A stretch of 60,425 bases of DNA, counting the filler, from Dimargaris cristalligena (lineage: Eukaryota), in NCBI GenBank assembly GCA_003614675.1. It is 3 parts of 3 records of this genome, joined end to end, with 100 filler letters (N's around TTAATTAATTAA, not from the genome) between each part and the next. Parts side by side here need not be neighbours in the genome. Positions count along the whole stretch, not along the records: positions 40,365 to 60,425 come from ML002709.1; 2 more parts are not named here. One strand, given 5' to 3'. A program made the translations under genes and the position numbers. The stretch's first letter is position 1; each line of letters opens with the position of its first letter. Below, in pieces: positions 36,327-60,425 of the stretch. Under the pieces are notes generated by a model, which worked only from the letters and a program-made list of their open reading frames with translations, did not search any database and was not told where the DNA came from.

Positions 36327-37690
36327 CTAAAGAGGGATAAAGGAATTGTCCACCAGGACGGCGAGGTCTCCATTATCGTCAAAACTAATAGTGCTAGGGA
36401 TACCGTAATTATCGGGACAAAGGCCTCGGTTGGTCAGGGGGATTTCCCAGTGTCTACCCAGGGCCAGGAGATCACTGGCTGCTCCGGGTAAATTCCAGTC
36501 ATTGGCACACTGGATGAAATCGTCCAGGGAGTGTTCGTCCAGGGACCCCTGGATAACGTCCAAATACTCGCCCATATCTCTCGAAAAGCTAGCATCCGAA
36601 TCGAACAATGGGAGTTGATTCCGGAGCCCGGTGGCAATGACAACTATATACCAGACATAGACCAATTGTTCTTCTACTTCATGATCTATTTTACCGATGA
36701 AGTAGGATAAAATATCCCACTGGCGCGTCTGAATCAAAGTTATGATCAGGTTAACGGCCCAGATACGCATCATGGACAGGTCATCCCAATAAGGCCAGTC
36801 ACTTCGAAAAACAGTTGATAGTATACCAGGCATGAGCTCCTGGGGTTTGACCTGTCCCTCAATAATATGGGCTAATCCCACATCATTTACAACGATAAAA
36901 TCCAAAAATTGGCTAATAGATTCCTCGGGGCCTTGGTTAATGAGAGTGAATCCCGGAATCACGGCATGTTTTTGCTCATCCGAAAGCTGAGCAACATTAA
37001 CCCAACTTAGGTTACGAGTGGCGGTATGGCGATAGTCAGCGAGTCTGCCGATGGCTTCCGTTATTTGTTGGGCATTTAGCCCATTATCGGACCCGGCAAA
37101 GGCGGTGGAGATATTTTCAGCACTGGCCATGTACCTTAGCATGGATTGGACAATGTAGACCCGGCTCTGCATCAGTAGCGATTGAGTAGCCTCCGGAAGA
37201 TTTCCTGACGTGGGTTGGTTAGCTGCACCAGTATTATAGGCAGAAAGATCGAGAATCGAGAAGGGCTCGTTGTCAAAACTAGCGGCATTGGGGTGGGGAT
37301 ACCCGGTGTCGTCGCCCTACAGGGTAATAATGGTTCAGAGATATAGAGATATTATAATTGATGTTCATTAGGCAATGGCTATACCAAATTTTTCTACGTA
37401 GACGTCTAACAAGGACCGGGCCCTAAAGAATTCACAGCGTCGTGTACAATAAATGATCTAAAAAAGAGGGAGTGGTTCAGTATATTGTAAAGACTTACCG
37501 AAGCGTCAGTATCACTATCGTCCTTAGGCTTGTAAATGGACAATCCTCGACGTTGCAGGTGGTTGTTGGCCTGGGTAGATATCATTGGGTTATTCCAATC
37601 AGTAACTGACATCCAAGGACTCGGTAGAGCCGTCGTGGTACCGGTCAGCAGAGTAAGGCCTAAGAGGCTAAGCACGGATACCGTATACAT
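36327..37690 (-). CDS. Secreted hypothetical preproprotein, 393 aa, 2 exons (37499-37690, 36327-37316)
   Basis: Signal peptide MYTVSVLSLLGLTLLTGTTTA-LP and a propeptide ending HLQRR. Phase-0 GTAAGT donor and CTGTAG acceptor join in frame to the 281-aa ORF. TATATAAAGGG at about 37870-37881. Confidence 0.85.
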
Positions 37691-40264: not shown

Positions 40265-40364
40265 NNNNNNNNNNNNNNNNNNNNNNNNNNNNNNNNNNNN
40301 NNNNNNNNTTAATTAATTAANNNNNNNNNNNNNNNNNNNNNNNNNNNNNNNNNNNNNNNNNNNN
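40265..40364. other. Artificial contig-joining linker
   Basis: 44 N + TTAATTAATTAA + 44 N, identical to the first linker. Confidence 0.97.
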
Positions 40365-40637: not shown

Positions 40638-40802
40638 TTATTCATTTTGTTTTTTCTGGTCGACTGCTTCGGGGAACCAGCTAAAGATGTCGCGACGCTG
40701 GAGGGCGAACGGGTGATCGGCAGCTTGGATGCTAGGTGTGGGCAGAGCTATGGCAATAGCACTAACGGTGGCCAGAAAGACAGCGGCGAAAGTGACACGC
40801 AT
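40638..40802 (-). CDS. Small secreted prepropeptide, 54 aa (not in ORF track): MRVTFAAVFLATVSAIAIALPTPSIQAADHPFALQRRDIFSWFPEAVDQKKQNE
   Basis: TCCACCATG start context, clear signal peptide (AIA-LP), dibasic LQRR site, C-ending codon bias like the housekeeping genes, and TATATAAAA at about 41018-41026. Confidence 0.82.
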   Translation of the reverse strand: MRVTFAAVFLATVSAIAIALPTPSIQAADHPFALQRRDIFSWFPEAVDQKKQNE

Positions 40803-55907: not shown

Positions 55908-56279
55908 TAAAGAACCCACCACTTACTCCTAATCTGGTTGGGTGGCCATTATGGCCATTGCCTACAGCGAATACTATGATATCCCGTTAGTTACTACTAG
56001 TAGCTGGTGAGATACTCCCAACCCTGCCTTGACCCACCCACACACCACAGCTCTAAACCGAATAGTCCACTAAACGGAGCACAGAGCCCACAGAAGCCCA
56101 TATTCGTTTTGGGCCCCCTGTATCCCTCCAGCCACTCGCATTCAAGTGGGGCGACTTCTTTGGCCCAACTTGTCTGATTTGCTTACCATTCAACTACTAT
56201 TGTCTCCTCTTCAATTCGCCTCTTCGTGATCCCCCGAATTCCACACAAGGCTCCTAGTCGCCGCTTTTGCGATCCAGCC

Positions 56280-57975
56280 ATGTCCTCCGCCTCACTCGTC
56301 CGGTGGTCCTCCAGTGGCCTGCGCCGATCCCGCCTGCCAACCGGCCGGTCCCTTCGTTCCGATGGGGAGAATCCCTCGCGCCGGTTCCTGCGTACCTCGG
56401 CCGGGTCTCAATTCTGGGGCATCTTCAGCCAGAAGCAGCCTCTACCCACCCTAGCCGAGCGCACCACCGCGTCAACCCCCAACCGCCCCACCACCCAAAG
56501 CTCCCGCTTATCCACCCGCCCCGGATTTTGGAGCCGCCTCATGGGAGCGTCGGCTAAACCACTTCTCCAACCCGACAACCTGTTCCACCCGCTTGCACAG
56601 TCCCCTATCCCCGCTATCCGCGAAAAGCACGTCTACATCGCCGAGCACGGCTGTTGCCCCGTCTGCGTGAACCACGAACCCTTCACCAATCGCCTGATCC
56701 AACATATGTCCCCCAAGGCCGATGCCGCTCCGTCTGCCCGTGCCGACCAGCAGGTCTTGACCCTGAATAAACAGCAGTCCAAGCCCCCTACGTATGAGTG
56801 CCCCGACTGTGGCTATCCCACCCACTGTTCCGAAGAGCATTACCTCCAGGATAAGGCCAATCACGACAAGGTCTGCGGTTGGCTCAAAGAAACCAATATG
56901 GACGACCATGATTTGCGTTCTGGTCGCCGTTTCCGCGAGTTTGACTTCCCGAGTAAGTTAAGCCCTCTCAATCACTTAGTATAACCTATAATTATTGCCA
57001 ATAGACTACAATCCCCCTAACTAAGAGGGTGTTGCCCAAGGGACTAGACGAATAACCTTTTGGGAAATTGCCCCGTTCTAGTGACCCCTCCACTCACCAC
57101 TTTATTATGCTTTCTCGTACTTTAATTGCCCATTTCCAGAGAAGCAGCCCAACGAAAACACCATCAATTTGGCCAACTGGGACACCCTACTGTATACCCG
57201 TGGCTTCCCTAGCCTAGTGAGCCAGCACGCCATTCACCACATCACCAAACTACTCACCTACCCATTGACCATCGGCTCGCTGCTCCACCCCCTCAGTCCG
57301 TACAACTTGAAGAACGCCCTTACCGTGGAGGGACTCCGGTCGCTCACGGCCCTCCGCACCACCCTGGGCGAACACTCCCAGATGAGTACCCGCAAAGACG
57401 TCATCTTTGACCCCATTCGCGTATTTATCGTCGGCGCCCGGGCGGAGGCTATGCTGCCGCCCCACGTCTACTCCCAGCTCGCCTTCATGTTTCCCCATAG
57501 CCCTTTCCATATCTACTTTGTTGGTCCCGAGGCCACCCCTCCCCCAGGCAACGATAGCACGCACCTCGGCGTTTCCCTGCAAATGATGCTCCGGTGGGAG
57601 CGTAAACTATTCCACGAATTCTACCACGAAGTCACCCCGTTCGACCCGTACCGCGACGTGTTCTTCCTCTTTAGTCCGGGCCTCGGGTACCCGTTTGCCC
57701 GGTCACTCTGGCGGCCTACGTTGGAACTCATGATCCAATCCCAGTGCCCGATTTTCGTGACTGCTTACAACCAATCGGACATGAATGCCGATGTAGCCAC
57801 CATCGAGGAGGACCACAAGGATACGTTTGACTGGCTGGTTAAGCCCACCGAAAATACGTTCCGTTCACTCAAGAAAGAAATCAACCTGCTTGATTTGACC
57901 GAAACTTCGCAAGCCAATTGGTACGTGTACGGTATCCGGGGAAAGAAGTACGAAGTAACCTTTACAGGCGAATAG
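56280..57975 (+). CDS. MSS51: Mitochondrial protein Mss51 (COX1 translational activator), 2 exons (56280-56952, 57140-57975)
   Basis: R/S-rich mitochondrial presequence; LLQPDNLFHPLAQSPIP; ECPDCGYPTHCSEEH; DDHDLRSGRRFREFDFP; NWDTLLYTRGF; RVFIVGARAE; NWYVYGIRGKKY. Phase-1 GTAAGT...CCAG intron. Confidence 0.95.
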
Positions 57976-58990
57976 GTGCTAGCAAAAAGGCGAAGGTATG
58001 CTTGTAGAGTCTTTTTCAATCTATAGCCAGTTGTACGAGTGGGTGCCCGTTGGTTGGAGGGATCAAGTTTAATTCACTTATTAATATATAGAAAGGCATC
58101 ATACGCCCACTTTCCCCTTCTTTCATAGTAGATGTGGGTGAAACTCAGACCCATCTGTATACGAGTTTGGATGTCATGTAAATGGAGGCATAATTAGTGA
58201 ATTTGTTGGGAGCTGTTAGTAACTGCTGTATTGCTTGAGGGTTTCGTTTTGTAACCAAATGAAACTGCTCTCATGTTAACGCACTATGAATCCCCCTAAT
58301 ATATATACCCCATATTGGATTGTATGTATATCGCCCCCTCCCCCCCCCAAGCCCAACATTTATGACAGACTACAGCATATTTTTTTATCATTACCTTTAT
58401 TGTTATACCATTCTTAATAATGAATCAGTAGTGTATCTGCCCTGACCAATGTCGGCCTTTTATATCTACCTGTCCTGCTCCCAGGTTACAGTTGCCCAAA
58501 TACCCCAGTCATTATGAGCACCTTGAATGTCCCATTAATGAATATGAACAATAGACAAGAATCTTGTCATGACATTCCCATTGTTGAAATACCTATCACT
58601 AAGGTTACCCCTATCAGTTCCATTAGGTTTTGGGCAACCATCTTCTTGCCTCTGTTTCTATTTTTACTACCATCACCTCTTTTATAATATTAAGCATAAT
58701 GTCAGCTGTAATGCAATTTTACACCTGTTGCTGTACTCCCATTCTCCTGAGTAATTTCAATTACTCCATAATACACCATAGTAAAACATTGGCCCAAATC
58801 TCAAAAATTGGGTATATCCATATCAAATAATTTGAATACCCGTCCTATATAAGCAATATCCCTATTTATTGACCTTGGTTTACATTTAATATTGTATTTC
58901 AGGTCTGACATTGTTTCAGCAATTATGCCCTACTCAATAAACACATTTTATTTAATGGATGGCCATCAGCCAACAGCAATTACAAGTGAA

Positions 58991-59245
58991 TTATTTACTG
59001 TCCTTGGTCACTAAACCCTTGTTCTTCTTCTCAAGCTCTTTGATCTTGATGGCCAGGTTGGCATATTCCTCCTTCTTACTCTTGACCAGACTATTAGTTG
59101 ACTTGAACATATCCAATAAGCCACAGCACAGGAGAGTGATGGGAGTCCCAGCTGATTGGGTTCCAGACAAGGGCAGAGCCATGGCAAGGGTGGTGGCAAG
59201 GGTGCTGACATTGGCCAAAGCAGCAACAGCAATGGTGAAATACAT
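58991..59245 (-). pseudogene. CpG-decayed small secreted prepropeptide gene (84-aa frame still open)
   Basis: MYFTIAVAALANVSTLATTLAMALPLSG aligns codon-by-codon with the 40802 signal peptide. LLCCG (CTG TGC TGT GGC) sits where LQRRG/LQRRD is expected. No CpG in the region; CTATAAATA at about 59549-59557. Confidence 0.6.
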
Positions 59246-59699
59246 AGTGAAAGTGGAGGGAAGAGTAGTGGGCACAAAAGGTTGGAAGGGTTGGATAATG
59301 GGTGAGGTGCCTAATTAGATGAAACTGGGTGAAAGGCTAATTAGCACCTGAAGCCAAGGTGATAAAAAGGGTCTTTTTGCTAAATACAAGGAAAAGGAGA
59401 ACAGAGAGTAAACTGAGTAGTAGCTAATAGTCACCTGAAGCTAAGGTGGTATTAGTGTTCTACAAGGGGGTCAAAGGAGTCAGATAATAATGTCTAGGAA
59501 GTAAGGGGCCAAAGTTGTCTGTCCTTTCAAGGGGATGAACAAGGGGTGTATTTATAGTTTTTTCATCCAAGGGGAAATAAAGGGAGAATCAGAGGGAAAT
59601 GATAGATTAGTCATCAACATGAGAACTTATGCATGTGATATAACTATAAACTAATTGGACTAGACTTGGCACATGGAAAGGCTTAGCATAAACAGGGGG

Positions 59700-59865
59700 A
59701 CCAATCAATAGGATGGTGGGCTGGTAGTTATGTAAAATATAGCCAGTGATATGTAAAGACCAATCAAGGAGCTGGTGGCATGTGGTTATGTAAAATATAG
59801 CCAGAGGTATGTATAAACTAGACAAGGGGCTGGTGGCATGTGGTTCTGTAAAATATGGCCAATGA
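59700..59865. repeat. Three imperfect tandem repeats of about 58 bp
   Basis: Units start at about 59700, 59759 and 59817 and share GCTGGT...GTT(A/C)TGTAAAATAT(A/G)GCCA. Two units begin ACCAATCAA. Confidence 0.8.
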
Positions 59866-59903
59866 AATGGAAATGGAGAGAAGGAGGGAGAAAGAAAATT
59901 TAA

Positions 59904-60425
59904 TGTGGTGTAGGCACCACACTCTCCCTTCTTAAGAGAAGAGTATATTCTTCAAAGGGGGTCTGGGCATCTATGGGCTGGCTTTATTCTGGATGAATGT
60001 ATGGGTTTCCTAGTGAGCTGGAGTCTGGTGGGGGTCAAGGTGTATGTGTTCCAACTAAGCTGGGTGGCAATAGTGAATGGGCCTAGCCACCTGGGTTCAA
60101 AGGTCTTGGCTGTGATATTCTTGACCATAACTGAATCACCGGGGTTGTATACACGAATTTTGGGTTTACTAGACCAGAATTTTGCCTTAAGGTTCCGATG
60201 CGCTGAGATTCTTGCTTTGAGTGCCTGGCTTCTGACCAACTGAAGATTCAAAAATCGGCCGGTGGGATCTGGAAAATGGGAAGGGAAGTCAACAGTAGGT
60301 TCAATCTCTTTTAGCATATTAGGGGTGCCTGGGAGTCTGGGCTCAACACCATACAAGAGAGTAAATGGGGTAAAGCCAGTGGTTCTGGACCTCTGGGACC
60401 TGATCATCAAGAGGGCAAATGGAAG
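59904..60425 (-). mobile_element. 3' end of a Ty3/Gypsy LTR retrotransposon: integrase C-terminus, polypurine tract and start of the 3' LTR
   Basis: TTGFTPFTLLYGVEPRLP...YNPGDSVMVKN...FEPRWLGPFTI...NTYTL...IHSSRIKP (integrase end plus GPF/Y module), stop at 59952. PPT AAGAAGGGAGAG (59922-59933) is immediately followed by TGTGGTG from 59921. Confidence 0.9.

Follow-up and report, generated by a model that had tools for sequence, protein, structure and literature searches.

The window, the whole stretch of 60,425 nt of Dimargaris cristalligena DNA analysed here (filler included), carries near its end a small gene that adjoins a long terminal repeat (LTR) retrotransposon. The gene is an open reading frame (ORF) of 84 aa on the minus strand (58991..59245) and contains no CpG and no Arg codon; the frame is open, as the initial annotation described. 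The product comprises a signal peptide-like leader (residues 1–24), a short pro-region extending to residue 41 and a helical mature part of 43 aa; signal peptides throughout this study were judged by hydropathy only. The codons TGC TGT (59123..59128, minus strand) encode Cys40 and Cys41 at the position of the Arg-Arg (RR) site of the family, and the gene is hereafter referred to as the CC copy. The structure model of the protein had low confidence (mean pLDDT 59.6), with helices at residues 4–22 and 35–83. Pfam search of the ORF returned no family above the cut-off and only a weak bZIP-like coil, and the 15 matches of a PDB search were weak (best E 0.011) and mostly generic coiled coils. A database model of the gene, of 96 aa, has a different C-terminus.

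Upstream of the ATG, a 57-nt remnant of the 5′ flank (59246..59302, minus strand) is followed by a 619-nt LTR (59303..59921, minus strand) with TG...CA ends, inverted termini and no CpG. The LTR and the gene point the same way, and 57 nt separate the LTR end from the ATG; TATAAAT occurs at LTR position 366, approximately 250 nt from the 3′ end of the LTR. A polypurine tract and the 3′ end of the retrotransposon internal region lie beyond it (59922..60425, minus strand, cut by the window end), including an integrase C-terminal-like ORF (59952-60407) that matched PF18697 just under the cut-off (E 1e-6). Genome search with a query holding the LTR end gave 15 matches, of which 14 concerned the LTR part, and matches to other loci began sharply at 59301-59303. 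Since the repeat matches end there and the paralogs of the gene sit at unrelated loci, the ORF is not a retroelement fragment. A gag or other transposon origin, the possibility that the initial annotation had weighed against its own reading, was rejected: the gene and its flank are single-copy, and no transposable element family was found in Pfam. Similarity to the 5′ flank of the closest paralog (C515) can be followed as far as 59299, 4 nt short of the LTR edge. From this break in homology we infer that the LTR was inserted beside the gene. Neither the far end of the element nor a target-site duplication was found: a search pattern assuming a 5-nt target-site duplication gave no matches, none of the left flanks of 17 LTR-start loci, as far as listed, matched this site, and the next-numbered contigs held no continuation of the element.

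Further observations were made on related elements and elsewhere in the window. A solo LTR at another locus (L049, G000:C1317) has a 4-nt duplication with the flanks ctgt and ccat, which look as if one CpG-bearing target duplication had decayed oppositely on its two sides. The internal region at 59922-60425 is 99.4% identical to that of the copy at G000:C618 and the LTRs only 91.6%; either recombination or a collapse of the assembly at the contig ends may explain this mismatch. The minus-strand ORF at 37406-37690 (94 aa) has a leader that is hydrophobic and, at a comparable position, LQRRG; it was not scored by the family profile and is a candidate for another pre-pro-protein. Two related ORFs (6239-7054 and 10137-11117) have a common PLVLATLVLLDQSKFD stretch, and the identical 12-nt AT linker in both N gaps (20148-20159 and 40309-40320) is an assembly artefact.

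The peptide family

Protein searches of the D. cristalligena genome recovered nine family loci, namely, the CC copy, the gene at 40802, C515, C168, C1879, C387, C1394, C595 and C533. In the family layout, a signal peptide and a short pro-region ending in [LI]xRR precede an aromatic motif, which is followed by a coiled-coil-like helix, approximately 40–55 residues long. The initial annotation had placed TGC TGT where RR is expected, with LRRG or QRRG predicted in other copies, and the family agrees: the site residues of the eight other loci are LQRR (four loci), IQRR, LERR, LVRR and, in C1879, IQRQ, so that seven carry RR and none CC, and C515 reads LQRRG. The RR site is gone in two of the nine loci, and each of these has a repeat end less than 60 nt from the ATG.

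Most members carry, beyond the site, an aromatic motif (for example GFFDFMKS, GIFDVFRS or DFMDFFRS, and GLLDMFKS in the CC copy) and then a helix with heptad spacing. Mean identity over 28 pairs was 47% in the leader and 26% in the mature part; between the CC copy and C515, 18 of 41 leader residues and 17 of 43 mature residues were identical. The two genes are 64% identical at the DNA level, with many differences outside the CpG type, and their similarity extends approximately 150 nt beyond the stop. A protein tree of eight rows provided no well-supported fork for the CC copy.

The gene at 40638..40802 (minus strand) is a short member of 54 aa with intact LQRR, 12 CpG and a 17-aa mature part without the long helix. 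The leader parallel between this gene and the CC copy was borne out. Their mature parts, previously described as unrelated, are not: that of the CC copy is related to the family, and the short gene shares the first mature motif (3 of 17 residues identical to the CC copy). The notion of a conserved leader with a variable core was right for the leader, which is better conserved on average, and wrong for the core, which is a homologous helix and not freely variable. Likewise, the reported 12-nt duplication exists as a near-repeat but is not an insertion; close paralogs and the CC copy have equal codon numbers there, so the gene at 40802 is the shorter one.

Named relatives were all hypothetical proteins of D. 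cristalligena. A protein search with 4681 candidates gave seven matches (six from D. cristalligena and one to the protein of the window itself), and a profile search of a 50% library gave nine, comprising seven family members and two repetitive proteins that were dropped as artefacts. No family relatives were found among longer proteins, which is weak evidence, and an Atlas search with two paralogs yielded no usable match for either. The profile searches gave no credible relative outside this species. A literature search, with limited reach into subscription papers, found nothing on CpG decay or on the peptide family in Dimargaris.

In the six RR-bearing paralogs with open frames, the sequence places a pro-region with the RR site after a predicted signal peptide; the CC copy has lost this arrangement. 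The genome also contains a kexin-like gene with a P domain and subtilase motifs. A cationic antimicrobial-type role was rejected for the family, as the mature parts of the paralogs have a net charge of 0 to −6. The intact members are most likely, in a reading that we hold only tentatively, Kex2-matured secreted helical peptides that would act at the host interface. They resemble the Kex2-processed pro-domain (K2PP) fungal effectors, as outlined in the available text of bioRxiv 10.1101/2020.05.27.120113, in the signal peptide, the short pro-region and the aliphatic P4 with Arg at P1 (LxRR). They differ in that no sequence relationship was found, the mature part is a cysteine-free helix, the host is a fungus and both the cleavage and the effector role are putative; the CC copy differs further in the loss of its cleavage site.

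CpG loss in the CC copy and its flank

Relative to the 91-aa paralogs, the CC copy lacks seven codons, precisely one heptad; the gap lies in the helix and preserves frame and heptad register. The protein has no Arg left, Tyr replaces the basic residue 2, and the signal hydrophobicity (1.89) is the lowest of eight members (2.34–2.79 in the others). The mature part has a net charge of +5, outside the range of the paralogs given above. As for the suggestion that some lysines are decay products, 6 of the 11 follow C, but only K67 resembles such a product in most comparisons, with Glu in 3 of 5 paralogs; K69 corresponds to Glu in 1 of 5.

The 255 nt of the gene contain no CpG, against 11–24 in the six RR-bearing open-frame paralogs and 15.5 expected (Poisson P 2e-7). 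At the 18 alignment columns with CG in at least two of these paralogs, the CC copy has TG at eight, CA at five, TA at two and other states at three. The control was a leave-one-out application of the same test to each paralog. CG was retained at 0 of 18 columns in the CC copy and at 36 of 87 in the controls (Fisher P 2.6e-4), and TG, CA or TA made up 15 of 18 non-CG states compared with 29 of 51 in the controls, a borderline difference (P 0.051). Given this borderline share and the many non-CpG differences from C515, ordinary divergence also contributes to the differences of the CC copy. Both Arg columns of the RR site are among the 18, with CG in 6/6 and 5/6 paralogs. The CC residues almost certainly arose from RR codons by CpG decay, and the original proposal of CpG-to-TpG change near a repeat is thus supported by the loss of all 18 shared CpG columns and by the adjoining LTR.

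The open frame is no sign of selection, since simulated loss of all CpG retained an open frame with a probability of 0.49, 0.49, 1.0, 1.0 and 1.0 in five paralogs; the frame would have remained open because CpG change yields a stop only at CGA codons. This bears on the proposal that the CC copy is alive, with the LTR as a new promoter and with CpG mutation having produced an uncleaved, cysteine-bearing and cationic variant. Such a proposal is compatible with the open frame and the in-register seven-codon deletion, with the sense-orientation LTR and its TATAAAT, and with the second-study data. Contigs of run X5 span 56000-59342 with three differences, cross the LTR junction by 40 nt and show the same CC; within the gene they differ only synonymously, and databases list the same 84-aa protein from another assembly, in which the contig is longer. 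However, an open frame is expected without selection, a single synonymous site has no power, the signal peptide is weakened, no Arg is left for kexin cleavage, and an LTR with no CpG bears the mark of a long-targeted element. A live copy is consequently considered very unlikely.

Together, the same CC and junction in X5 and the identical protein elsewhere indicate that the CC state is shared between samples and, at CpG, complete. The earlier description of a gene caught mid-decay is therefore wrong for this copy, which has no CpG remaining. Diversification, also suggested there, is unsupported, as the changes strip all Arg, weaken the signal peptide and track mutation context. The three X5 differences have C/G in X5 and T/A in the window, lie in CpG, CpA and CpT contexts at 2761, 551 and 85 nt from the LTR, and are too few to interpret.

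CpG depletion extends from the gene into single-copy DNA as a halo without strand (58303..59302), with 3 CpG in 1 kb that rise with distance. The first CpG to the left of 59303 lies 462 nt off, and the counts per 150 nt from the LTR edge are 0, 0, 0, 1, 0, 1, 2, 3, 4, 11, 12, 12 and 14, of which the last fall in a neighbouring MSS51-like coding gene and would be raised in any case, as coding DNA is richer in CpG. The background mean was 6.5 per 150 nt over 22000-58000, and the only genome match of the flank 57950-58990 was itself. Among 1116 sliding 1-kb windows in 1-58000, 19 had three CpG or fewer, all in a repeat-bearing hole at approximately 20250-22150. A CpG gradient into single-copy DNA beside a repeat was found at this one clean locus and at the C1879 pair. 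Halos beside eight copies of a second repeat were mild (means of 1.5–3.5 CpG per 150 nt near the edge compared with 3.3–4.9 further out, in unmasked flanks) and are a weak control for a general halo. The flank of the other LTR copy at C618 was rejected as a halo control, as its CpG hole contains another repeat (43 matches). A second stretch of the window that is devoid of CpG lies where a contig begins (20204-22100); within it, 20800-21380 belongs to an abundant repeat that also occurs near C515, C1394, C168 and C1879.

A second depleted copy and the origin of the decay

C1879 and C168 are 90% identical over 1.3 kb and may be paralogs or divergent alleles; the available text of PMC9866270 mentions a suggestion that D. 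cristalligena is non-haploid. Their ORFs show 24 differences, 22 of them transitions and 19 at CpG, with C/G in C168 in 16 cases. Codon differences comprise 8 synonymous and 12 non-synonymous ones, and C1879 retains 4 CpG compared with 15 in C168. A high-copy repeat other than the LTR (at least 40 matches, of 157 candidates) ends in CA 24 nt before the ATG of C1879 (8 of 8 fetched copies). C1879 is the copy that shows CpG decay part-way.

In the pseudogene C533 (G000:C533:11764-12078, L038), the start codon is lost and a stop, bridged by gene model P0014, interrupts the leader; RR and CpG are kept, with 7–15 CpG per 200 nt around the gene. As this dead copy shows, a gene is not stripped of its CpG merely by losing its function. 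This argues against an order of events in which the gene was silent or dead first, through birth-and-death of paralogs, was methylated as silent, and received the LTR later in a tolerant spot. Other losses in the family (C533 and the short gene at 40802) fit such an order, as do the reports of 5mC on non-expressed genes in Phycomyces in the part of PMC11258239 available. However, in each of the two CpG-depleted copies a repeat ends no more than 60 nt from the ATG, and the depletion of the CC copy includes non-coding flank and wanes with distance from the LTR, which makes this order highly improbable.

A PF00145 search of the draft genome gave two matches. One is a DNMT1-type gene (G000:C729) with RFD, BAH and methylase domains, the C-terminal end of which runs off the contig, and the other is a short untyped C-terminal piece; no RID-like gene was seen in this search, which was not exhaustive. 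Between LTR copies, transitions occurred at 135 of 948 CpA sites compared with 59 of 1031 CpT and 48 of 867 CpC sites (approximately 2.5-fold), counted over eight pairs that share one LTR and are not independent. The CpA excess would allow a contribution from CpA methylation or from a process resembling RIP. Homology-triggered, RIP-like bursts on paired repeats could thus have leaked into the flank, rather than slow 5mC deamination; CG-to-TA double changes at 2 of the 18 sites, the CpA excess and a 1-kb reach that matches RIP leakage as described in the available part of PMC2973834 agree with such bursts. They sit poorly with CpG as the main mutation context, with the two PF00145 matches noted above and with the one-sided change between C168 and C1879 (16 vs 3), which fits position and not the pairing of gene copies. 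Bursts of this type are accordingly judged quite unlikely. Neurospora-type RIP acts mainly as C-to-T at CpA, whereas here 19 of 24 differences lay at CpG and CpA was secondary. The CpG to TpG/CpA footprint is confined to repeats and their surroundings, as for Dnmt1/Masc2-type decay.

We consider it rather probable that the CC copy was inactivated as collateral damage, by CpG mutation of the methylation type that spread from the transposon. An LTR retrotransposon would have inserted 57 nt upstream of the ATG and severed the gene from its upstream DNA. CpG methylation directed at the repeat, for which the DNMT1-type enzyme is the likeliest agent, would have extended over approximately 1 kb of the single-copy flank. 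Deamination of methyl-C would have converted every CpG in the gene, of which the footprint is the visible result. Through this conversion the protein would have lost its RR site and every other Arg, along with the basic residue at position 2 and part of the hydrophobicity of its signal peptide. It is very probable that the LTR caused the CpG decay, and the CC copy itself is probably non-functional and presumably silent. The in-register seven-codon deletion, the same protein in the second assembly and the many non-CpG differences from C515 are points against this reading as a whole.

Relation to known systems and significance

According to the available text of PMC2973834, RIP leaks into single-copy effector genes of Leptosphaeria maculans such as AvrLm6 and LmCys1. 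The D. cristalligena locus is similar in that C-to-T changes affect a single-copy gene for a small secreted protein, are graded by distance and reach approximately 1 kb. In contrast to that system, CpG is the main and CpA the secondary context, the host is outside Dikarya, and the non-exhaustive search showed a DNMT1-type gene and no RID-like gene. For Microbotryum and rusts, fungi whose only enzyme of this kind is of the Masc2/Dnmt1 type, C-to-T decay of transposons with a CpG signature has been described (PMC4352252, in the portion accessible). The CpG context and a methylase with DNMT1-RFD and BAH domains are common to both; the decay in Dimargaris differs in its reach into a host gene and in its CpA bias, the portion accessible describing TE copies. 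CpG loss in host DNA beside Alu insertions, as presented in the accessible text of PMC7431005, offers a further parallel of insertion, spreading and age-graded loss over several hundred bases. Alu is a mammalian SINE, whereas the element here is a fungal LTR in a genome otherwise hardly CpG-depleted, hence the sharp edge and the total loss. In Phycomyces and Linderina, 5mC is stated to lie in repeats, and the main text of that paper, as far as available, does not name Dimargaris (PMC11258239).

The process is known from other lineages; what is new is the orphan peptide family and the C1879 replicate. The locus is a real and well-supported example of a host gene that has decayed at CpG next to a transposon, in a lineage that has been little studied. 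As a broader reading, which we regard as unlikely in its entirety, D. cristalligena might use unstudied Kex2-matured helical peptides on fungal hosts, and insertions shortly before the start codon with CpG/CpA leakage might recurrently switch members off and rapidly rewrite them. Outside Dikarya and keyed to CpG, this would be the counterpart of effector turnover driven by RIP, perhaps accompanied by a CpA activity independent of RID.

Our analysis provides a codon-level view of how repeat-directed CpG mutation in an early-diverging fungus hits neighbouring single-copy genes, with processing sites made of CGN codons as the first casualties. The complete case of the CC copy and the partial case of C1879, with C168 as a near-twin control, form a test pair for methylation spreading. 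The study also draws attention to candidate secreted peptides that form an orphan family in this haustorial mycoparasite.
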